Source of the DNA: an uncultured archaeon
GTDB taxonomy: Archaea > Asgardarchaeota > Thorarchaeia > Thorarchaeales > Thorarchaeaceae
Assembly (NCBI GenBank): GCA_964631415.1
Contig: CAZVZC010000035.1
Coordinates: forward strand, 1 to 21,368
DNA: 21,368 nucleotides
Reading direction: 5' to 3'
In this document: positions 2,881 to 21,366 of the stretch, one piece after another
How the letters are laid out: the number at the start of each line of letters is the position of its first letter
Position numbering within the stretch: position 1 is the first letter of the stretch
Program-made: the position numbers and the translations under genes
Notes under the pieces: model-generated
Seen by the model: only the letters and a program-made list of their open reading frames with translations
Told to the model about the DNA's origin: nothing
Databases searched by the model: none

Positions 2881-2905
2881 CTACTGAACGCCCATCCGGG
2901 GGCAA

Positions 2906-3013
2906 CGGAGCGTAGCTCAATCTGGCTGTTCTGCGACGAGTCGCCCGGGACCGGAAGAGAGCTATGGACTGTAGATCCATTGGTTGGGAGTTCAAATCTC
3001 CCCGCTCCGACCA
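2906..3013 (+). tRNA. tRNA-Tyr(GUA) with a 29-nt non-canonical D-loop intron (about 2928-2956) and encoded CCA
   Basis: Acceptor CGGAGCG/CGCTCCG (C1-G72, A73), anticodon arm ATGGA-CTGTAGA-TCCAT, T arm GGGAG-TTCAAAT-CTCCC. The D-loop is interrupted by a BHB-forming insert. Confidence 0.93.
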
Positions 3014-3118
3014 TTCACTCTCAATTCTCGTATCGCCACAGTAGCATTGGCCCGGCAGATGGAGGGCATGTCTTTGGGACGGGCATCTCTCATTGATGGA
3101 AGCCATGGCCTATACTCG

Positions 3119-3266
3119 TTCGCGAATAGAAACTTGAAGGGCTCATGGCTGGACTGATCTCTGAGGCCGACTCGGCACAGTCTGTTGTCAAGGACTGCGA
3201 CCCCAGTGCCGTTTCTGGGTGGACGCAGTTTCTTGTTTCCACCTTGTCCAACCAACAATGAACGGT
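3119..3266 (+). repeat. Dispersed ~148-nt structured element, copy 1 (candidate ncRNA or mobile-element end)
   Basis: Aligns with 15865-16012: 22-nt identical core CGACCCCAGTGCCGTTTCTGGG (3198-3219) and a shared 3' block TGTCCAACNNACAATGAACGGT. Confidence 0.8.
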
Positions 3267-3331
3267 ATTACTCCGCCAATACAGGTCTTTTAGTAGTCTA
3301 CTGACGAACTCCTGTTAGGTGGACTGTCGAG

Positions 3332-4550: not shown

Positions 4551-5555
4551 TCAGTAGATCTTGAATGCTCCTGCGTGTGGCTGTCTGAAGCCCTGCTTAT
4601 TGGGGTCGTTCTTCAAGACCGCATAGTATGACGCCACCTGAAGCGCGATTGTGTTTGGGATTGTCTGCGCTAGTGGTGTAAGCAAGCCCAGTCCATCGTC
4701 AGTGTTGAGAGCATAGATGCGCATGCCTAGCTTGGTTCTGAGGGTCATGAGGAATCTCTCATCCTTGGGGGTGACCGGATTGTCTGAAATGACCACTGCT
4801 CGTTCGTCCTTGTCGATTGACATGTTGTAGTGGTGCTGAAACTCCTCTCTCAATGCTGCGATGCCCTTCACAACCGAAAACTCATCGAGTTTCATCATGC
4901 CAATCTGCGCAGCTGTGTAGTTGGGCCCATCAGAGATCAGATAGAGAGCCTTTCCTGTTTCGATAAGCTTGGAGATGGCAATCCCCTGTCGTTCTGACCA
5001 GCGTACGATTTCGTCCCCTTTCGACTCTAAGATGCCTATGTCGTGCTGGAGCGTGCTCTGGTCAGCTGTTGTGTGCTTTGCAGCGAGTGCAAGAAGGTAT
5101 GTGAGTGCACTTGTGGTGGTAGATGACGGGCTGATTTCATAGGACTTCAATCCAGAACTGGTCTGCCACACTCTATCTGCGAGCTGTGCGATTTTCCCCT
5201 GTGGATTGTCTGTCAGAGCAATGGTCATTGCACCACCAGACTTGGCGAACTCGAGTGCCTCAACTGTCGCCAGAGTCCGGCCAGAAGCACTCACTCCGAT
5301 AACGACAGAGTCCCGTCTGAGATGCAGTTTCTGCAGTTCGGGCGGCGACAGCGAAATCGCGTTGAATCCGGCCGTGAGAAGTGCCCACCTACCATACTCG
5401 GCAACGGCGTATGAATCGCCGCATCCAAGAAGCATAATGAGTTGTCTGCCTGAAAGAGGCTTCAGGTCGTCTTCTCTGACAGCTCTTATCGTAGCTGGTA
5501 TTGATGATGCCTGTCCCCTGATCGCTCGATAACAAGCATCTAGGAACTCGGTCAT
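4551..5555 (-). CDS. SIS-domain sugar-phosphate isomerase/deaminase-like protein (GlmS/AgaS/FrlB-like, two SIS domains)
   Basis: LLGCGDS, VIGVSASGRT, TIALTDNPQG, and second-domain motifs GMMKLDE and EEFQH. GGAGTGG SD upstream. Confidence 0.85.
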   Translation of the reverse strand: MTEFLDACYRAIRGQASSIPATIRAVREDDLKPLSGRQLIMLLGCGDSYAVAEYGRWALLTAGFNAISLSPPELQKLHLRRDSVVIGVSASGRTLATVEALEFAKSGGAMTIALTDNPQGKIAQLADRVWQTSSGLKSYEISPSSTTTSALTYLLALAAKHTTADQSTLQHDIGILESKGDEIVRWSERQGIAISKLIETGKALYLISDGPNYTAAQIGMMKLDEFSVVKGIAALREEFQHHYNMSIDKDERAVVISDNPVTPKDERFLMTLRTKLGMRIYALNTDDGLGLLTPLAQTIPNTIALQVASYYAVLKNDPNKQGFRQPHAGAFKIY

Positions 5556-6362: not shown

Positions 6363-9300
6363 TTGGTCGTAGAAGAACGGGACAAGTACTGGCCGGTCAT
6401 GCAGGCCTACTTCTCCGAGTTTGGCCTTGTAGGCCAACACTTGGACTCATTCAATAGGTTTGTTCGCGAAGAGCTGCAGGAGATTGTTGCCAGTGTCGGC
6501 AGGTTGAGCCCAAAGGTTGAGGACTACTTTGTTGACCTTGGTGTCATCACTGTCGAGCCACCGTCTATCAGGGAGGCAGACGGCAGCGAGCACCCGCTCT
6601 TTCCTAACGAGGCGCGAATCAGGAACCTCACCTATGCGAGCAAGATGCACTTGGAGTGTACTCCAGTCCGCAAAGAGGGTTCTGTGACAACAAGAATGGA
6701 GACTCTCAGGATCTACATCGGTGACCTGCCTATCATGCTCAGAAGTGAGAAATGCCTCCTCCATGGTATGTCCGATGAGGAACTCATACGGCATGGAGAA
6801 GACCCCAAGGACCCTGGAGGGTACTTCATAATCAATGGGTCTGAACGCGTACTTGTCACACAGGAAGACTTGGCGCCAAACAGGATATTGATTGAGGAGG
6901 CCAGCAAGAGCTCAAGCTACACCCACATTGCGAAAGTCTTCTCAACTTCTCGCGGCTTCAGAGCACCAGTCACGATTGAGAGAAAGCGTACGGGAGAACT
7001 GAGGGTGTCTTTCCCATCTGTACCAGGCAAAATCCCCCTTGCCATTCTCATGAAGGCACTAGGTCTTGAGTCTGACAGAGACATAGCAGATGTGGTTTCA
7101 GATGACGAGGAAATCCGGAACGAGCTTATCGTCACGATCGAACAATCTGCGCCAATCAATGCCACACAGAATGAAGGTGAAACCTCCACTAGGATAAACG
7201 CATTGGACTTCATTGGCAAGCGTGTGGCTGTCGGACAGACCAAGGAGTATCGTCTTGCCCGAGCTGAGAAGGTGCTGGACAGGTATCTGTTGCCCCACAT
7301 TGGCACCGAGGACAAGCACAGGCTTCAGAAGGCCTACTACCTCGGTGAGATGGTCGAGCGTCTGCTGGAGCTAGTCATGAACAAACGTCAAGCGGATGAC
7401 AAGGACCACTATGCAAACAAGCGTCTCAAGCTCTCAGGCGACCTCCTGATGTCTCTCTTTCGAGTAGCACTGTACTCCCTCACCCGTGATATCAAGTATC
7501 AGCTGGAACGTACAGCCGTACGGGGCCGCAAGCCGAACATTCGTACTGCCGTGAGGGCGGATGTGATTACGCAGAGGCTGAAGCACGCGCTTGCGACTGG
7601 CAACTGGGTTGGTGGAAAGGCTGGTGTTTCTCAGCTCCTTGACCGTACAAACTATATTTCATGTCTGTCACACCTGCGGAGAGTAGTCTCCCCCCTGTCA
7701 CGGTCACAACCTCACTTTGAGGCGCGAGACCTCCACTCGACACACTGGGGCAAGATATGTCCCAATGAAACCCCTGAGGGGCCAAACTGTGGTCTGGTAA
7801 AGAACATCGCCATGATGGCATACATCTCAGTGGGCACAGTTGAGGAGGCTGTAGAGAGAGCCCTACTGAAGGCCGAGGTAGAGCCCATAGAGCGGTTGAA
7901 GGGCAGACGTGGTACAAAGGGTGCTGATGTCTTCCTGAATGGTCGTCTTGTGGGCATTCATCCTGCTCCGCAAGTGTTAGTCAAGACTATCCGTCAGAAA
8001 CGACGCACAGGAGAGATTGACCAAGAGGTCAACATCGCTTACTACGAGGACACACACGAGGTCCAAGTGAACAGTGATGCGGGTCGAGTCCGGCGTCCGG
8101 CGATTGTCGTTGAGAATGGTCGAAGTCGTTTGACGGATGAGCACCTCAGGATGATCAAGGATGGTGAGTGGGGTTTCATGGACCTTCTCAGGAATGGGAC
8201 TGTCGAATTCCTTGACGCCGAAGAAGAGGAGAACACACTCATAGCGATGTACGCGAGCGATATCGGTCCTCACACAACACACTTGGAGATAGCGCCCCCA
8301 ACTATACTCGGAATCTCTGCGGCGCTCATACCATTTCCTGAGAGAAATCAGTCGCCCCGCAACGTGTACATGGCTGGCATGGCAAAGCAGTCTGTTGGAG
8401 TGCCTGCGTCCAATTTCAAGTTCAGAGTCGACACCCGCGCACACTTCTTCCACTACCCGCAGAAACCCCTTGTCAAGACACGGGCCATGGACCCCATCGG
8501 CTATGAGGAGCGTCCCGCAGGACAGAACTTTGTGGTGGCAATACTGTCCTTTGAGGGGTACAACATTGAGGACGCGCTGATCATGAACAAGGCCTCTATC
8601 GAGAGGGGCCTAGGGCGAAGCACTTTCGCACGTGTCTACGAGAGTGAGGAGCGCAAGTACCCTGGTGGACAGGAGGACAGGTTTGAGGTCCCTGAAAGGA
8701 GCGTACGTGGATACAGAGCCTCAGAGTCGTACCGCAATCTGGGCGAGGATGGTATCATAGAGACCGAGGTCGAGGTGCAGGGCGGAGATGTCCTCATAGG
8801 CCGAACCTCACCACCTAGGTTCCTTGAGGAGTACTCCGAGTTCGAAATCCAGTCCCCCAACAGAAGAGAAACGTCTGTCGCAGTCCGTCATGGCGAGTCT
8901 GGTGTCGTAGACGGTGTCATACTGACTGAAACGATTGATGGTAACAGGCTCGTGAAGGTCAAGGTCAGAGACCTCAGAATCCCCGAACTCGGTGACAAAT
9001 ATGCATCACGTCACGGACAGAAGGGTGTGATTGGCTATGTGGCTCCTCAACAGGACCTACCGTTCACTGAGGATGGAGTAGTTCCAGACCTCGTGATCAA
9101 CCCACACGCCATACCCAGCCGGATGACCATTGGTCAAATCCTCGAGATGATTGCTGGCAAGGCCGCCGCAGTGGTTGGCAGACAACAGGACGCGACGCCA
9201 TTCTGTGGCGTGACTGAAGAGGAACTCTTCGAGATGCTAAAGAGTCATGGTCTCCAGCACAATGGCCGTGAGGTCATGTACTCTGGTATCACAGGTGAGA

Positions 9301-9728
9301 AGCTCAAGACTGACGTGTTCATCGGATGTATCATGTACCAGAAGCTGCATCACATGGTCGCTGACAAGATTCACGCCCGGGCGAGAGGTCCTGTCCAAAT
9401 CCTGACCCGGCAGCCGACGGAAGGCCGTGCACGTGAGGGTGGTCTGAGGTTTGGTGAGATGGAACGCGACGTTCTCATTGGTCATGGCGCAGCAATGCTG
9501 CTCAAGGGCAGACTGCTCGATGAGTCCGATAAGAGCAACATGCTGGTATGCGAAACCTGCGGGCTCATAGGCGTCTATGACCGCAACAAGGACGTGTATT
9601 ACTGCCCGATATGCGGCAGCGGAGCGAAGATCAGTAGTGTGGTCGTCTCATACGCGTTCAAACTGTTAATACAAGAGATGATGTCATTGGGACTGGCATG
9701 TAGACTCAGACTGAAGGAGATGATCTAG
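6363..9728 (+). CDS. rpoB: DNA-directed RNA polymerase subunit B (fused Rpo2)
   Basis: Motifs GGYFIINGSERV, ETPEGPNCGL, GDKYASRHGQKG, GGLRFGEMERD and a C-terminal Zn finger. TTG start after a GGTGA SD. Confidence 0.99.
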   Translation: MVVEERDKYWPVMQAYFSEFGLVGQHLDSFNRFVREELQEIVASVGRLSPKVEDYFVDLGVITVEPPSIREADGSEHPLFPNEARIRNLTYASKMHLECTPVRKEGSVTTRMETLRIYIGDLPIMLRSEKCLLHGMSDEELIRHGEDPKDPGGYFIINGSERVLVTQEDLAPNRILIEEASKSSSYTHIAKVFSTSRGFRAPVTIERKRTGELRVSFPSVPGKIPLAILMKALGLESDRDIADVVSDDEEIRNELIVTIEQSAPINATQNEGETSTRINALDFIGKRVAVGQTKEYRLARAEKVLDRYLLPHIGTEDKHRLQKAYYLGEMVERLLELVMNKRQADDKDHYANKRLKLSGDLLMSLFRVALYSLTRDIKYQLERTAVRGRKPNIRTAVRADVITQRLKHALATGNWVGGKAGVSQLLDRTNYISCLSHLRRVVSPLSRSQPHFEARDLHSTHWGKICPNETPEGPNCGLVKNIAMMAYISVGTVEEAVERALLKAEVEPIERLKGRRGTKGADVFLNGRLVGIHPAPQVLVKTIRQKRRTGEIDQEVNIAYYEDTHEVQVNSDAGRVRRPAIVVENGRSRLTDEHLRMIKDGEWGFMDLLRNGTVEFLDAEEEENTLIAMYASDIGPHTTHLEIAPPTILGISAALIPFPERNQSPRNVYMAGMAKQSVGVPASNFKFRVDTRAHFFHYPQKPLVKTRAMDPIGYEERPAGQNFVVAILSFEGYNIEDALIMNKASIERGLGRSTFARVYESEERKYPGGQEDRFEVPERSVRGYRASESYRNLGEDGIIETEVEVQGGDVLIGRTSPPRFLEEYSEFEIQSPNRRETSVAVRHGESGVVDGVILTETIDGNRLVKVKVRDLRIPELGDKYASRHGQKGVIGYVAPQQDLPFTEDGVVPDLVINPHAIPSRMTIGQILEMIAGKAAAVVGRQQDATPFCGVTEEELFEMLKSHGLQHNGREVMYSGITGEKLKTDVFIGCIMYQKLHHMVADKIHARARGPVQILTRQPTEGRAREGGLRFGEMERDVLIGHGAAMLLKGRLLDESDKSNMLVCETCGLIGVYDRNKDVYYCPICGSGAKISSVVVSYAFKLLIQEMMSLGLACRLRLKEMI

Positions 9729-9729
9729 G

Positions 9730-13586
<3,857 letters not shown>

Positions 13587-13690
13587 AGGCGTGTTCCACT
13601 GCGCAAGCATTAAAACCGGACAGCATATGGCACTACTGGTCCTAGGTCCATGAAACCACAGCAACATGATACTCAACGAGGTCGCTGAAC

Positions 13691-13984
13691 TTGAGCCTGA
13701 ATCAACCGATTGCAAGTGCAGTCAGCACGGGTGAGTGCAGGATAGGAGCAAGCTCATCCATCAAGGCGCTCCGCGCTGGTATTGTGAAACTGGTAGTAGT
13801 GGCCTCCAACTGCCCTAAGGAGGAGTACGAAGATATCAGTCACTATGCCAGTCTTACCGAAACCAAGATGTACAAGTTCGAGGGTACTTCCTGGGACCTT
13901 GGTGAAGTTGTCGGAAAACCATTCATGGTTTCCGCCATTGCCATCATAAAACCGGGTGACTCCAAGATTCTAAACATGGTATGA
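13691..13984 (+). CDS. rpl30e: 50S ribosomal protein L30e (eL30)
   Basis: KLVVVASNCP, GTSWDLGEVVGKPFMVS, PGDSKIL. Canonical position after rpoA2. Confidence 0.96.
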   Translation: MSLNQPIASAVSTGECRIGASSSIKALRAGIVKLVVVASNCPKEEYEDISHYASLTETKMYKFEGTSWDLGEVVGKPFMVSAIAIIKPGDSKILNMV

Positions 13985-13995
13985 GGAGAGTCCTC

Positions 13996-14430
13996 TTGCC
14001 CAAATTCAAGCTGTCCATGGATGACATGGCTCTGATTGCGACGTTCGAGAGCATAACTGGGGTATCCGCTGTAGACGTTGTCCGTGATGACGATAGTGAG
14101 CGCCTGATATTCGTCGTGCGTGCTAAACAGCTGGGAAAGGCGATAGGTAGGGACGGCGTGAGGGTGAGGACCGCAGCTGACGCTTTTGGCCGGACAGTCG
14201 ATGTCGTTGAAATGGCTGAAACTGCTGAGGACTTTGTCAAGAGTGCACTGGCACCAGCCCGCGTGGAACGCGTGAAGATAGTCGAACACAAGGACGGGAG
14301 CCTCGTCGCCAGCGTGACGGTCAAGGCTGAGGACAGAGGGGTTGCTATAGGACGTGAGGGCAGGAATGTCGCACGTGCTCGCATTCTTGCAAGGCGTCAT
14401 TTTGATCTGGACAACGTTGTAATCGCCTGA
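13996..14430 (+). CDS. nusA: Archaeal NusA (two KH domains)
   Basis: FESITG, GKAIGRDG, GVAIGREGRNV. Start placed at TTG 13996 after a GAGGAG SD; the ORF track gives 13981. Confidence 0.95.
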   Translation: MPKFKLSMDDMALIATFESITGVSAVDVVRDDDSERLIFVVRAKQLGKAIGRDGVRVRTAADAFGRTVDVVEMAETAEDFVKSALAPARVERVKIVEHKDGSLVASVTVKAEDRGVAIGREGRNVARARILARRHFDLDNVVIA

Positions 14431-14505
14431 CACCGACCTAAACCTGAGTTGTTGTCCTCCTCTTTACTCAAGGATGCAAAGAATGCCTCAGTCGGGTCAT
14501 AATGC

Positions 14506-14511
14506 TTTTAA
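14506..14511 (+). promoter_or_regulatory. Putative TATA box for rps12-rps7
   Basis: TTTTAA in the 160-nt nusA-rps12 gap, about 80 nt upstream of the start codon. Confidence 0.45.
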
Positions 14512-14590
14512 GGAAAGGGTCCGCGGGTGGTCTGACCCCCTCAGGTCGAGCCATACGTGTTTTGATCCTGAGAGCTAAGAGGTAGATCAC

Positions 14591-15034
14591 TTGACTCATT
14601 CAAAGTCGCCGCTCGGTGAGTTTGCTGCTAGGCCGCTCGCCTCCAAGCGAAGGAAGTTTGCGTGGAAGAAGCCCACTTACAAGAGCAGAGTGCTTGGCCT
14701 GAAGCGGAAAACCGACCCGCTGGAGGGAGCTCCTCAGGCACGTGGGATAGTCCTTGAGAAGGTCGGAGTCGAATGCAAGCAGCCGAACTCGGGTATTCGC
14801 AAAGCAGTCAGAGTTCAACTGTCAAAGAATGGCAAGCAGATCACTGCATTCATACCTGGCGATGGAGGACTCAAGTTCATTGACGAGCACGACGCCGTCA
14901 TCTTGGAGGGCATCGGTGGCGCCATGGGTGGTGCCTTCGGAGACCTCCCCGGTGTCAGGTGGCGCATAATTAAGGTCAATGGTGTCTGCCTTGAATCGCT
15001 GATCTATGGCAAGGTCGAGAAGCCTGTACGTTAG
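14591..15034 (+). CDS. rps12: 30S ribosomal protein S12 (uS12, archaeal/eukaryotic type)
   Basis: [40 protein letters not shown] start after a GAGGT SD. Confidence 0.98.
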
Positions 15035-15043
15035 GTGATAATC

Positions 15044-15700
15044 ATGGCAGAAGAAGAGAAGACCGAGTCGACTCAGGCTCCTGAAGCACCAGCCCCACAT
15101 TCCAAGCCTCCTCTGCTGCTATTCGGCAAATGGAACTCCACCGAGGTCCAAGTGAAGGACGTCGGTCTCGAGAGGTATATCACGCTGAAGCCTGTGCTTA
15201 TCCCCCACACTGCGGGTCGACATGCAGACAAGAGGTTCCACAAGTCTGGTGTACCGATAGTGGAGCGTCTGGTGAACAAGGTCCTCAACGCAGGCGACCG
15301 TCATGAGAAGAAGATGCGGACTGGACGTAATGCTGGCAAGAAGGTGAAGGCAATCGCCTTCGTCAGGCGCGCCTTCGAGATGATAGACTTCAGGACTGGC
15401 CTGAACCCCATACAGGTCTTGGTAACCGCGATTGAGAATGCGGCTCTCGCCGAGGACACCACTCGTATCTCCTATGGTGGTATGGCCTATCCCCGCTCCG
15501 TAGATGTAGCCCCACAGCGGAGGGTGGACGTCGCATTGAGGTATATTGTAGTCGGGGCTGTGAGGACCTCGCACAACAACGCCAAGTCGCTTGAGGAATG
15601 TCTCGTCGACGAAATACTCCTCGCATTCAAGGGTGACATGGGAAGCTACGCCATTTCTAGAAAGGACGAGCGCGAGAGAGTAGCGAGATCAGCTCGTTAG
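15044..15700 (+). CDS. rps7: 30S ribosomal protein S7 (uS7)
   Basis: LLFGKW, PIVERLVN, NPIQVLV, VDVAPQRRVD, ERVARSAR. ATG after an AGGTGA SD. Confidence 0.98.
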   Translation: MAEEEKTESTQAPEAPAPHSKPPLLLFGKWNSTEVQVKDVGLERYITLKPVLIPHTAGRHADKRFHKSGVPIVERLVNKVLNAGDRHEKKMRTGRNAGKKVKAIAFVRRAFEMIDFRTGLNPIQVLVTAIENAALAEDTTRISYGGMAYPRSVDVAPQRRVDVALRYIVVGAVRTSHNNAKSLEECLVDEILLAFKGDMGSYAISRKDERERVARSAR

Positions 15701-15751: not shown

Positions 15752-15864
15752 GCAACTATCGTTAGAATGTCCCTTTGACCAGCCCAAGTCATAAGACACA
15801 CCAATTCACGGCTACTAGTTGAGAGGGCGGACAACAGCTACTGAGAATTCGGTAATCTTGGACA

Positions 15865-16012
15865 TTCTCGAGTAGAAGCTCAAATGGCTTGAATCAGACA
15901 TCTCTCTGAAGCTGGTTCGACACATTTCAGCCCCAATGAGTACGACCCCAGTGCCGTTTCTGGGAGGGCAGAAACTCCTGTGTCCAACTCTGTCCAACTT
16001 ACAATGAACGGT
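15865..16012 (+). repeat. Dispersed ~148-nt structured element, copy 2
   Basis: Homologous to 3119-3266, with the identical 22-nt core at 15943-15964. Confidence 0.8.
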
Positions 16013-16177
16013 GGCGACACTGTGTACAACTGGATTCATCCAGACAATCGTGGCATTGTTTTGTTCCTGAGAAAGCGGGGCTACAAAGTGCTTAACCTGA
16101 TCGAAAGTCGTAGACCCCGAATGAATGAGAAACTGACTAGCCGGATTCAGGTTGGGGAGTATGAGTCCGATTACTGA
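16010..16177 (+). pseudogene. C-terminal fragment of a GNAT-family acetyltransferase
   Basis: GGDTVYNWIHPDNRGIVLFLRKRGY fits the GNAT C-terminal pattern (hxxxNxxxxxFxxKxG[FY]). The acetyl-CoA binding motif A and N-terminal half are absent, with the repeat in their place. Confidence 0.6.
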
Positions 16178-16248: not shown

Positions 16249-17658
16249 ATGAGCAAAGAGAAAGGAAAGGCCGCAGCAGCACCAGCGGCGGCGCCTGCTA
16301 CACCGAGCAAAGAGAAAGGAAAGGCCGCAGCAGCACCAGCGGCGGCGCCTGCTGCACCGGGCAAAGAGAAAGGAAAAGAGCACCTCAACCTCGTCGTAAT
16401 TGGACACATCGATCACGGGAAGAGCACTCTTACCGGACGACTTCTGTACGAGGCCGGTGCACTTGACGAGAGGACCGTCGCAGCCAACAAGGCCGAGGCG
16501 GAGCGTCTTGGACGGCCTGAACAGGCTTGGGCCTTCGCGCTTGACAGGCTAAAGGAGGAGCGAGAGCGTGGCATCACTATTGACATCGCATTCTTCAAGT
16601 TCCTCACTCCAAAGTTCTACTACACTGTCATTGACGCGCCCGGCCACAGGGACTTCGTCAAGAACATGATAACTGGCGCGTCCCAAGCTGATGTCGCTAT
16701 GCTGGTCGTGTCTGCCAAGAGCGGTGAGTTCGAGTCCGGCGTTGGTCCTGGTGGTCAGACCAAGGAGCATGCATACCTTGCAATGACCCTTGGAGTCCCC
16801 AGTCTCATCGTCTGTATCAACAAGATGGATGAGGTCAAGTACAGCGAGGCCCGGTACAAAGAGGTCAAGGAAGAGGTCGGAGACTTCCTGAAGAGCATAG
16901 GGTACAAGGTCGACCAGATCCCGTTCATCCCGACCTCTGCGCTAGAGGCTGTGAACCTGAAGACGAAGACCCCCGCCAAGACCCCGTGGTACACCGGACC
17001 CAGTCTGCTGGAGGCCCTCGACGCAGTGACACTCCCTCCGAAGCCTATGGACAAGCCTCTGCGTGTGCCCATCAACGACGTGTACACGATCAAGGGTGTT
17101 GGAACAGTACCAGTCGGCCGTGTTGAGACCGGAGTCATGAAGCCAGGGCAGAAGATAGTCTTCATGCCACCTAACAAGTCAGGTGAAGTGAAGTCGATAG
17201 AGATGCACCACGAAACGCTGGCTCAGGCAATACCGGGTGACAACATAGGTTTCAACGTCAGGGGTATTGAGAGGAAGGACCTCACCCGTGGAGACGTCGC
17301 CGGACCTGTCGAGAAACCTCCGACGGTCGCAACGGACTTCACAGGCCAAGTGATGGTCATTCAGCACCCGACTGCAATCACTGTGGGCTACACCCCTGTC
17401 ATCCACGCCCACACTGCACAGGTCGCGGCTAGGTTCGACCAAATCACGAAGAAGATCGACCAGCGCACGGGCCAAGTCATCCAAGAGAACCCCGACTTCG
17501 TCAAGAGAGGCGAGAGCATGGTCGCCAAACTCGTCCCATTAAAGCCGTTGTGTCTCGAGAAGTACAAGGACATGCCCCAGCTGGGCAGGTTCGCAGTACG
17601 TGACATGGGTATGACCGTCGCAGTGGGTATCGTGCTCGACATCACCCCAAGGGCATAA
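16249..17658 (+). CDS. tuf: Translation elongation factor EF-1alpha with a repetitive N-terminal extension
   Basis: GHIDHGKST, ERERGITID, DAPGHRDF, NKMD, GTVPVGRVETG, LGRFAVRDM. Confidence 0.99.
   Translation: MSKEKGKAAAAPAAAPATPSKEKGKAAAAPAAAPAAPGKEKGKEHLNLVVIGHIDHGKSTLTGRLLYEAGALDERTVAANKAEAERLGRPEQAWAFALDRLKEERERGITIDIAFFKFLTPKFYYTVIDAPGHRDFVKNMITGASQADVAMLVVSAKSGEFESGVGPGGQTKEHAYLAMTLGVPSLIVCINKMDEVKYSEARYKEVKEEVGDFLKSIGYKVDQIPFIPTSALEAVNLKTKTPAKTPWYTGPSLLEALDAVTLPPKPMDKPLRVPINDVYTIKGVGTVPVGRVETGVMKPGQKIVFMPPNKSGEVKSIEMHHETLAQAIPGDNIGFNVRGIERKDLTRGDVAGPVEKPPTVATDFTGQVMVIQHPTAITVGYTPVIHAHTAQVAARFDQITKKIDQRTGQVIQENPDFVKRGESMVAKLVPLKPLCLEKYKDMPQLGRFAVRDMGMTVAVGIVLDITPRA
16251..16376 (+). 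repeat. 54-bp tandem repeat x2.3 in the 5' end of tuf
   Basis: Units 16251-16304 and 16305-16358 differ at one base. Partial third unit at 16359-16376. Confidence 0.95.
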
Positions 17659-18432: not shown

Positions 18433-21366
18433 TCAGGAAGGCGCCCTTCCTCCTGTCCTCCTTCTCATAAGCACTAACAATGCTATGAGTCCGACACAGC
18501 CAGCTGCTCCAACAATGACGATGAGCTCAATCCCCATCGGGGGCACGGCGGTCGTACCAGTATGGCTAGGATAATCGAGTGCATCAAGAGGGTCCGTCCC
18601 TGCCAGCACTTCAGCACCGTCAAGGAAGGTGTCATTGTCACTGTCATCGTCTGTTGGACTAGTACCTATCTTGACCTCGTAGGCATCGTTGAGATTGTCA
18701 CAGTCAGTGTCGATGCACTGCAGGTCTGTCCCAAGTGCTATCTCATCGAGGTCATCAAGCCCGTCGTAGTCTGTATCCCCGACCGTAACACCGAGCATCT
18801 CTAACACTGCCCGTATCTCGTTGATGTCCTCAATGTGACTGGCATTGAACTGTGACAGTGCGGCTACGTCCTGCGCGACCAGTGCGGCAAGGAGATCAAG
18901 CTCGGCCTCGTTGTTGTCCACTGCACTGACAACCTGCATGAGTAGTGTTGCATTTCCATCGACATAGGAGAAGAGCCTCTCGATATTCGTGTGGTTTCCA
19001 TCAAGCCAAGACACCACCTGCTGGAGCATCGTGGCATTGTCGTCCATCTGTTGCATCACACTCTGCAGAAGAGTCGCATTGCCGTTGGACCACGCGATGA
19101 GGTACCGGATCAGGGTCGCATTCCCATCGAGGTCCTCGTAGATGGCTTCATACCAGGCTTGGGGCATGGCGGGGTAGGACAGCGGATCTAGGGGATTGGA
19201 ACCATAGGCCACCTCGTACCCGTCGAGGAAGTTGTCGTTGTCAGAGTCGATACATAATGGATTCGTGCCGTAAAGAGCCTCCACCAAGTCAATCAGTCCG
19301 TCCATGTCAGTATCAGTACCATCACAGATGACAGTCACAAAGGAATCATAGTCACCGGCGTGGGTCGAGTCGTACGCATCGGCTATCGGGAAGTCCGTGG
19401 AAGATGTACAACCTGTGATGTATGCGAAGCCGTTCTCCACAGCGATTCCATATCCAGCGTCATCGCTTGAGCCTCCGAAGTAGGTACTGTGGATGAGTGA
19501 CTGGCCGTCAGATGCCAGACTGGTCACAAAGCAGTCGCCGCCTCCGTTGTAGGTCGAGTCGTACGCATTGACAGTCGGAAAACCGGACGAGTCTGTAGAG
19601 CCCGTCACATAGGCCGAGCCGTTCTCTAGGGCAATCGCCGCTCCTCCTTCTTGGCCTGAGCCCCCTAGGAAAGTGCTGTAGACCAAGGCCGAGCCATTCG
19701 CTGCCAGCCTAGTCATGAAGCAGTCTCGAGTGCCGCCTAGAATCGAGTCGTACGCATTGACAGTCGGAAAACCGGACGAGTCTGTAGAGCCCGTCACATA
19801 GGCCGAGCCGTTCTCCACAGCGATTCCACATGCGATGTCTTGGGCCGAGCCGCCAAGATATGTGCTATACACCAGAGACGAGCCGCTGGCTGCCAGTTTG
19901 GTCACGAAGCCGTCGATGCTTCCACCGTAGGTGAAGTCAAAACTATTGACGCACGGGAAGCTCGAAGACTGGGTATAGCCCGTCACATAGGCCGAGCCGT
20001 TCTCCACAGCGATTCCGCGTGCTGCGTCCAGGTTCGAGCCGCCAAGATATGTGCTATACACCAGAGACGAGCCGCTGGCTGCCAGCTTGGTCACGAAACA
20101 GTCATACAATCCTCCGTTGTAGGTAGCGTCGTAATGATTGAATGTCGGGAAATCTTCTGAGCTCGTAAAGCCCGTCACATAGACTGAGCCGTTGTCAACA
20201 GCTATTCCGTTCACGCCTTCCCGATTGGAACCCCCGATGAAGGTGCTGTAGATCAAGGACTGACCGTCGACCGCTAGCTTCGCAATGAAGGCGTCACAGT
20301 CCCCAGTAAGGACCGAGTCATAGGCATTGATTGTTGGAAAGTCGGAGGAGTATGTTTCGCCGACCACATAGACGAAGCCGTTCTCCGCGGCAATCGCATA
20401 TCCGAAGTCGTAGCCTGAGCCCCCGATGAAGGTGCTGTAGACAAGAGACTGACCGTCTGCCGCTAGCTTCGCAATGAAGGCGTCATTGTCCCCACTGAGG
20501 GCTGAGTCATAGGCATTGATTGCCGGGAAGTCGGAGGAGTATGTCTCGCCGGTCACATAGACGAAACCGTTCTCCACAGCAATCGCGTATCCGGAGTCGT
20601 AGCCTGAGGCTCCGAGGAACGTGCTGTGAATAAGAACCAGAGGATCGACAACGAGTTCACGGGTCACATCGTATTGACCAACTGAGAGCCCTATGGCGTT
20701 ATCACCACGGGGTTCGAAAGTGCACTCAATACTGACAATCCTACTGTCCTCTTGATATACCATGAGTCCGCTGTCTGTGAGTACGACCCCATTCATCGCC
20801 ACAGCCACAGAATCATCATTCACATCAATCGTGTCTGCGTCTGGATACCTCATCTGTATCAGCGACGGGTCCATCCGAGGCGTAACAGCAAACTGGTACT
20901 TGAGGCTCCCATCGAGAAACCCGTACACGAGATCAATTCCCGGGTAGATGTCCGAGTATCTCAGGACTGCACAATCCCTGAGCCCCATTCTCCATCCACT
21001 TGGGTCATTCCCAAACATGTAGTTTGTCACAGAGCCCGTTTCCTTGTCACCGACAGGCATGATTCCCGCACTCCCAGGGAACCCAAGCCTGAGCAGCGTG
21101 TCTCCAACGACGTACCACACCTCAGACTCTCCGAAGTAAGCGATGGGGTCGACGCCTCTGCGCGCCACGTAGTAGATGCCATCTTCGACAGACGCCGAGG
21201 GCGAGAAGTGCATCATGTCCAGTGTTACATCCCTGTTCCCTGTGCCATCGTCCGTAGTGCTCGTCGGCCCCGGCGTGTCCTCATGAAACACCGGCTGGGC
21301 GCCCATGAGCGACGGCACCATAGAGCACACGGACAAGAGCAATAGCACTGCTGCGATCACTGCAGA
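18433..21366 (-). CDS. Cell-surface protein: signal peptide, N-terminal beta-rich domain, 7 SBBP-type beta-propeller repeats, Ca-binding DxDxDG repeats, glycosylated coiled stalk, C-terminal TM anchor (5' end probably outside the window)
   Basis: 63-aa repeats 'YST[FY]LGGS..D...GIAVENG.AYVTG.T.S.[DG]FP', DTDxDGLxDxxE repeats, and a TM helix followed by RRR. The frame is open to the window edge. Confidence 0.9.
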   Translation of the reverse strand, partial: SAVIAAVLLLLSVCSMVPSLMGAQPVFHEDTPGPTSTTDDGTGNRDVTLDMMHFSPSASVEDGIYYVARRGVDPIAYFGESEVWYVVGDTLLRLGFPGSAGIMPVGDKETGSVTNYMFGNDPSGWRMGLRDCAVLRYSDIYPGIDLVYGFLDGSLKYQFAVTPRMDPSLIQMRYPDADTIDVNDDSVAVAMNGVVLTDSGLMVYQEDSRIVSIECTFEPRGDNAIGLSVGQYDVTRELVVDPLVLIHSTFLGASGYDSGYAIAVENGFVYVTGETYSSDFPAINAYDSALSGDNDAFIAKLAADGQSLVYSTFIGGSGYDFGYAIAAENGFVYVVGETYSSDFPTINAYDSVLTGDCDAFIAKLAVDGQSLIYSTFIGGSNREGVNGIAVDNGSVYVTGFTSSEDFPTFNHYDATYNGGLYDCFVTKLAASGSSLVYSTYLGGSNLDAARGIAVENGSAYVTGYTQSSSFPCVNSFDFTYGGSIDGFVTKLAASGSSLVYSTYLGGSAQDIACGIAVENGSAYVTGSTDSSGFPTVNAYDSILGGTRDCFMTRLAANGSALVYSTFLGGSGQEGGAAIALENGSAYVTGSTDSSGFPTVNAYDSTYNGGGDCFVTSLASDGQSLIHSTYFGGSSDDAGYGIAVENGFAYITGCTSSTDFPIADAYDSTHAGDYDSFVTVICDGTDTDMDGLIDLVEALYGTNPLCIDSDNDNFLDGYEVAYGSNPLDPLSYPAMPQAWYEAIYEDLDGNATLIRYLIAWSNGNATLLQSVMQQMDDNATMLQQVVSWLDGNHTNIERLFSYVDGNATLLMQVVSAVDNNEAELDLLAALVAQDVAALSQFNASHIEDINEIRAVLEMLGVTVGDTDYDGLDDLDEIALGTDLQCIDTDCDNLNDAYEVKIGTSPTDDDSDNDTFLDGAEVLAGTDPLDALDYPSHTGTTAVPPMGIELIVIVGAAGCVGLIALLVLMRRRTGGRAPS
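19330..20630 (-). repeat. 189-bp intragenic repeats encoding propeller blades
   Basis: Exact matches at offset 189: 19554-19626 = 19743-19815 (73 nt) and 19846-19896 = 20035-20085 (51 nt). Array boundaries are approximate. Confidence 0.9.

Follow-up and report, generated by a model that had tools for sequence, protein, structure and literature searches.

A repeat family of Thorarchaeota probably consists of gene-less IS607-type mini-transposons carrying an omegaRNA scaffold

Results

Genes and repeat copies in the window

The window analyzed here is a 21,368-nucleotide stretch of DNA from an uncultured archaeon of the Thorarchaeaceae (assembly GCA_964631415.1, contig CAZVZC010000035.1). The archaeal genes rpoB, rpoA', rpoA'', L30e, NusA, S12 and S7 occupy positions 6363-15700. 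For RpoA'', identity to Candidatus Thorarchaeota MAGs amounts to 75-80%. An earlier note had described two like-oriented + strand stretches, 12.7 kb apart, as copies of an RNA-like element of about 148 nt. Both stretches were found where the note had placed them, and their 22-nt core and 3' end (ACAATGAACGGT) are indeed identical. The extent of 148 nt was too short, as a covariance model of the family reaches further in the 5' direction in both copies (Table 1). Chance is excluded, because E-values reach 1e-51 within the genome and because the + strand of copy 2 folds better than its shuffles (z -2.28), whereas the - strand does not (z -0.25).

Copy 1 begins 67 nt downstream of an intron-containing tRNA-Tyr gene. 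This gene (anticodon GUA; 2905-3014, + strand) has about 32 nt inserted near its D-loop region. It was missed by ARAGORN, and its 3' part scored 28.6 bits in Rfam against a cut-off of 29.

Copy 2 is placed after the S7 gene. At this place the genomes G001 and G003 have the 5' part of a gene, the C-terminal remnant of which follows copy 2 in the window. The remnant is headless (16003-16177, + strand): in G001 and G003 the gene has about 400 nt more. An ATG within the terminus of copy 2 is in frame with the remnant and gives a 58-codon ORF; this is probably chance, and it could supply a start codon. Empty sites for both window copies were sought in G001 and G003. The 3' junctions align exactly. 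On the 5' sides, strong divergence or deletion prevented the definition of an empty site.

Repeats of other kinds are also present in the window. Three 54-nt repeats (16251-16376), each coding for an 18-codon Lys/Glu- and Ala/Pro-rich unit, are located at the start of the 469-codon gene after copy 2. The gene at 18433-21360 (- strand, 975 codons) contains at least six tandem 189-nt repeats at 19378-20605.

Table 1. Coordinates of the two repeat copies and of their parts in the window
Feature	Position	Strand	Remarks
Copy 1, complete, old and decayed mini-element	3081..3266	+	covariance model R1 62.5 bits, model 1-189; nhmmer 3118-3266, E 2.5e-33
P1 hairpin, copy 1	3201..3220 (stem 3202-3206/3215-3219, loop 3207-3214)	+
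3'-terminal GAACGGU, copy 1	3260..3266	+	homology to the orthologous locus of G001 resumes directly after
Copy 2, complete mini-element	15825..16012	+	covariance model R1 180.6 bits, model 1-189; nhmmer E 3.8e-47
Left end of copy 2	15825..15864	+	GG(G) terminus, degenerate first box, second 10-bp box ATCTTGGACA at 15855-15864
Hairpin S2, copy 2	15902..15940 (15902-15914 with 15928-15940)	+	probable 5' part of the RNA scaffold
P1 hairpin, copy 2	15946..15965 (stem 15947-15951/15960-15964, loop 15952-15959)	+
Two inverted 10-bp boxes (TGTCCAAC..), right end of copy 2	15981..16000	+	inverted left-end boxes; present in right ends of full-length tnpB elements
3'-terminal GAACGGU, copy 2	16006..16012	+	predicted P1-loop pseudoknot partner; includes the right-end GG crossover site

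Copy number, ends and mobility of the family

The element had been thought to be present twice, which is too few. In the assembly that holds the window (2.16 Mb, 85% complete), a first search gave 32 matches, and three iterated rounds of nhmmer gave 41. Eight of the 41 lie at contig ends; therefore, the repeat breaks the assembly. The repeat was detected, in tens of copies, in 17 of 24 genomes that belong to the same archaeal family; 16 genomes from outside this family were searched as well and gave none. The copies differ in age: a young subfamily is 91-97% identical, and old copies are 58-80% identical. Copy 2 is intermediate, with about 84% identity to the young subfamily and 84-85% to its nearest copies, and copy 1 is one of the old copies.

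Alignment of the flanks gave a unit of about 189 nt with sharp common ends, starting with GGGT and ending with AACGGT. Among 87 copies, GGG(T) forms the first bases in 75-83, ..CGG(T) stands last in 85-86, and AACGGT makes up the last 6 nt in 78-86. Neither terminal inverted repeats nor a target duplication was found in the aligned termini and flanks. Except for an A-rich preference just upstream, the flanks are without conservation. The copies are mostly intergenic and occur in both orientations, and no neighbour gene recurs.

A filled and empty pair of sites was observed. Contig C41 of the window's genome is occupied at 5245-5433, and contig C8 of the congeneric genome G002 reads through with a GG at the junction; the flanks are 91-93% identical. 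A second locus is filled in G002 and about 230 nt shorter in G001 and G003. At C14:41196-41519 of the window's genome, two copies stand head to tail. The second starts right after the ACAAAG of the first and replaces its last bases; judging from this junction, the pair is a nested or end-directed insertion.

Predicted RNA fold

The pairings P1 and P2 and the pseudoknot, all proposed in the earlier note, were counted in 109 distinct right-end modules, which had been aligned with MAFFT blind to structure. P1 of copy 1 was confirmed. In the modules it is 87.8% paired, and its outer pairs covary (C-G 84, U-A 21, G-C 1; next pair G-C 23, U-A 21). The pairing of the P1 loop with the 3' end had been given as 8 bp. 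The complementarity is real (3207-3214 with 3260-3266 in copy 1), and it comprises at most 7 bp: the eighth pair, U3207-A3267, was dropped because A3267 is the first flanking base and is variable between copies. The predicted pseudoknot is 95.3% paired over the 7 pairs and varies at the two end pairs only (U-G 55, C-G 34, U-A 6 and G-C 2 at one; G-U 92, G-C 8 and A-U 6 at the other). Its support is mostly conservation. P2 is 84% paired with little covariation, and this count is confounded, since its arms lie within 10-bp repeats of the kind that IS607-type transposases bind.

A covariance model of the whole element gave a full-length match in nearly every locus searched. Over 87 copies, 82.6% of the cells are paired, against 30-46% when the partners are slid, in an alignment that was fitted to the model and therefore inflates pairing. 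Changes on both sides were detected in 38 of the 49 pairs, and none of 500 shuffles reached the observed values. The strongest helices are the long hairpin S2 (helix 5), with both-sided changes in 9 of 9 pairs and 85.7% of the cells paired, and a helix of 5 bp around P1; neither overlaps the transposase boxes. The two helices that the terminal boxes form may be due to co-evolution with the transposase instead of RNA pairing. A plain MAFFT alignment of 61 full copies gave almost no structure with RNAalifold. Because this alignment is poor across genera, the covariance-model alignment was used instead.

According to the earlier note, the element is not known to match a riboswitch or ribozyme consensus. 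In Rfam, with its riboswitches, ribozymes and IS605-orfB RNAs, no match was obtained at the gathering score or at E <=10, and the only hits were the tRNA and a chance miRNA match (E 8.5).

IS607-type ends and the transposase

Elements of the IS607 family have GG at their termini and in the target, lack inverted repeats and target duplications, and carry helically phased subterminal repeats bound by TnpA (PMC6188088). The ends of the Thorarchaeota element resemble those of IS607 and IS1535 in the GG termini, in the lack of terminal inverted repeats and target duplications, and in phased repeats of about 10 bp that begin about 20 nt inside the end (PMC6188088). Two 10-bp boxes, 10 bp apart, are found at the left end, and inverted versions of them at the right end. 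These boxes are presumed, by analogy, to be the binding repeats of TnpA. There are two such predicted binding sites per end, whereas IS1535 has four.

In G003, the left end of the element (about 43 nt) is located 79 nt upstream of a gene with HTH_17/MerR and Resolvase domains (L156:250-876). The same left end, followed by a Resolvase match, was detected on contig C76 of the window's genome. Resolvase-domain genes of about 210 aa occur in this genome and in its relatives. In contrast to these serine recombinases, no match to a Y1 transposase (Y1_Tnp) was obtained in the window's genome. A first reading of the element as IS200/IS605 (Y1 transposase, PATE) was dropped on account of this null result, the GG...GG ends and the left end beside a serine recombinase.

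These results also bear on the proposal that the copies are a regulatory RNA family of the host (riboswitch, ribozyme or small RNA) that is repeated by chance. The conserved fold, the position of most copies between genes and the lack of an Rfam match are as such a family would have them. However, presence or absence of the element at a GG is polymorphic, and this mobility contradicts a host RNA. Furthermore, the element shares its ends with tnpA genes and, as described below, with tnpB genes, its copies break the assembly, and they follow no particular gene or orientation. We regard a host regulatory RNA as hardly credible.

Relationship to tnpB genes

Several family matches cover only the last 70 nt or so. 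Three of them directly follow matches to the TNB domain of TnpB/Cas12f, at C2:1292-1525 and at the contig ends of C19 and C32. In C2, the reading frame crosses the conserved module and reaches its stop codon within the terminal ACAATGAACGGT. The mini-element and the right ends of TnpB-like genes of 718-763 aa have exactly the last 66 nt in common; the 5' 123 nt of the mini-element gave no match in the tnpB loci. The position of the conserved module, at the 3' end of tnpB and running to the right-end boundary, matches that of an omegaRNA.

The intact genes of the relatives code for 718-763 aa, of which Pfam recognises the C-terminal TNB domain only. RuvC-like D, E and D motifs and a CxxC..CxxC finger were seen by eye in the translation. 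A language-model look-up placed the partner protein among TNB/C2c1-RuvC clusters, and a PDB sequence search with it gave marginal Cas12g matches only (E about 0.008). In the 85%-complete assembly of the window's genome, an intact partner tnpB was not found; it holds a 179-aa C-terminal fragment (C2) and two contig-end pieces. Two large-tnpB loci of G003 (L157 and L158; G003:C8 and G003:C16) share more than 4 kb upstream of tnpB at 86-89% identity; a divergent ORF that exceeds 772 codons is part of this shared stretch. Therefore, the mobile or duplicated unit is larger than tnpB alone. The left end of a full-length tnpB element was sought in G003 and was not found there.

A second, unrelated TnpB-like open frame is present at C59:5005-6744 (-) of the window's genome. 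It has 580 codons from stop to stop, with 27% identity in the RuvC/TNB region and a long tail at the C terminus, and is without a copy of the element's right end.

As the last 66 nt are homologous to the 3' coding sequence of tnpB, the two copies might be a decayed protein gene, either the 3' end of tnpB or the ORFs 2992-3258 and 15815-16039 of the - strand, and a - strand frame is in fact open in several young copies. However, the unmatched 5' 123 nt and the sharp ends common to all copies do not agree with a decayed gene, and no frame is consistently open, the best being open in 20 of 87 copies. A codon-patterned open frame across genera was looked for and was not seen. We therefore hold a decayed protein gene to be very improbable. 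The two - strand ORFs were rejected as genes, as no frame is kept open across the 87 copies; they have a short peptide in common because both cross the conserved core. That best antisense frame is stop-free in 9 of about 12 young copies of the window's genome and is not kept across genera, so that it looks like a lineage accident and not like a conserved trait. The earlier argument against a protein, from two compensating 1-nt indels, is valid for the mini-element. It does not apply to the full-length elements, where the 66 nt overlap the 3' coding end of tnpB and its stop codon.

Another explanation is that the element is a DNA parasite only: the helices would be due to transposase binding sites and to shared descent, and the gene-less copies would make no functional RNA. 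As in IS1535 (PMC6188088), the terminal boxes would be repeats to which a protein binds. The bias of the wobble pairs towards the + strand is modest, with 369 G-U against 281 A-C, and an intact tnpB is absent from the assembly itself. These observations are in line with a mere parasite. On the other hand, S2, P1 and the helix enclosing P1 lie outside the repeat boxes and have many double changes. Serine recombinases use double-stranded DNA, so hairpins are unnecessary for movement. Moreover, the module is found exactly where tnpB elements encode the omegaRNA. On balance, a parasite without functional RNA appears unlikely to us.

From the ends, the fold and the tnpB homology, we conclude that each copy is likely a gene-less, non-autonomous mini-transposon of the IS607 family (MITE- or PATE-like), with a + strand omegaRNA scaffold that would be used in trans. 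Among the functions suggested for the RNA in the earlier note, the guide-RNA scaffold fits, because the conserved 3' module is the 3' or right end of TnpB-like genes, where omegaRNAs are encoded; riboswitch and ribozyme do not fit. The copies thus form a genuine structured element, of a kind that was known before, and not a new RNA family of the host.

A possible second scaffold-like module in the 5' leader of tnpB

In relatives, the start codon of the large tnpB lies within a look-alike of the right-end terminus (L052:970-1075, L053:1000-1075, L055:700-800, L056, L057 and, on the - strand, L054). A P1-like hairpin is located about 40 nt upstream. The bases immediately following the ATG pair with the loop of this hairpin, with covariation between lineages. 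An exact repeat of the next 12-15 nt, which differ between lineages, is found 115-139 nt upstream within an AT-rich stretch that resembles a promoter. The 5' leader of tnpB may thus be a second scaffold-like module with a guide that matches its own promoter. The match of this putative guide to its own promoter region suggests RNA-guided self-repression.

Discussion

Comparison with known systems

Gene-less PATE-like elements of bacteria keep the transposon ends and the omegaRNA region and are present in multiple copies (Meers et al. 2023, PMC10055086). The Thorarchaeota element is like them in these respects and, as they do, would depend on TnpA and TnpB encoded elsewhere; the omegaRNAs that PATE-like elements often keep likewise need to be used in trans (PMC10055086). 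However, PATE-like elements belong to bacterial IS200/IS605, with a Y1 transposase and single-stranded DNA hairpin ends, whereas the Asgard element has IS607-type GG ends and repeat boxes.

The IS607 element CboIStron, with its TnpB and omegaRNA, resembles the Thorarchaeota element in the serine TnpA and in the GG core dinucleotide at both ends and in the target (bioRxiv 10.1101/2023.11.20.567912). Its TnpB scaffold ends in ..UCGG at the transposon boundary, and a G-rich TAM is located at its left junction (bioRxiv 10.1101/2023.11.20.567912). The predicted scaffold of the Thorarchaeota element also ends in ..CGG at the right end, and the left junction is G-rich. In contrast to CboIStron, the Thorarchaeota element is without a group I intron and without both genes, and its partner nuclease has about 720 aa instead of about 400.

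In the omegaRNA of ISDra2, the bases just 5' of the guide form a pseudoknot that all Cas12 guide RNAs conserve (PMC10097598). Here too, the bases directly 5' of the guide are predicted to pair upstream, which places the pseudoknot at the position of the one conserved in TnpB and Cas12 guide RNAs. The ISDra2 pseudoknot stacks on a stem; ours is a predicted structure. The two have no sequence similarity, and the pairing partner here is a hairpin loop about 50 nt upstream.

Proposed mechanism

The left 43 nt or so and the right 30 nt or so contain the GG crossover dinucleotides and the 10-bp repeats; by homology and from the literature, a serine-recombinase TnpA encoded elsewhere would bind these ends and move the element. 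The right-hand 105-110 nt or so would encode a + strand omegaRNA scaffold. In our model, this scaffold would consist of the long hairpin, the short helix enclosing P1, and the 7-bp pseudoknot that joins the P1 loop to the last bases. Transcription would continue into the adjacent host DNA, which would become the guide; the guide of copy 2 would start at 16013. As in the IS605 and IS607 studies, a large TnpB-like nuclease of about 720 aa would load the RNA in trans and cut the empty donor site after excision, and this cutting would favour re-copying of the element. Since the layout is the same as in the cited TnpB and PATE systems, we infer TnpA as the mover and guide-loaded TnpB as the cutter of the vacated site.

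A TATA-like box was detected 133-136 nt from the 3' end in 49 of the 87 copies. The young copies have it, and it could drive an RNA with a scaffold of about 105-110 nt. In both window copies the box is degenerate. With copy 2 moderately diverged and copy 1 decayed, both are probably relics.

"Guides" taken from the flanks match their own locus only. When second genomic targets were sought for the 20-nt flank "guides", only background matches of 14-18 nt were obtained. The mini-elements might be self-contained guide-RNA genes, with a TATA-type promoter fused to a scaffold, so that about 40 loci per genome would each express a guide against their own neighbourhood; we consider this unlikely. If it were true, the genome would have, with TnpB in trans, a dispersed and heritable set of guides, by which host loci could be silenced or cut as well. 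It is plausible that such a set would stand midway between transposon guides and CRISPR-like arrays.

Significance of the family

The conspicuous "orphan RNA" of this locus is explained as mobile DNA and is therefore not to be annotated as a riboswitch or ribozyme of the host. The family accounts for many contig breaks in Thorarchaeota assemblies, and our results provide an IS607-type family of Asgard archaea with exact ends, a GG target and a covariance model. The compact scaffold of about 105 nt and the TnpB partner of about 720 aa are a pair that could be put to the test as an RNA-guided nuclease. If the gene-less copies express RNA, the family would be an archaeal example of guide RNAs and nucleases that are uncoupled in trans.
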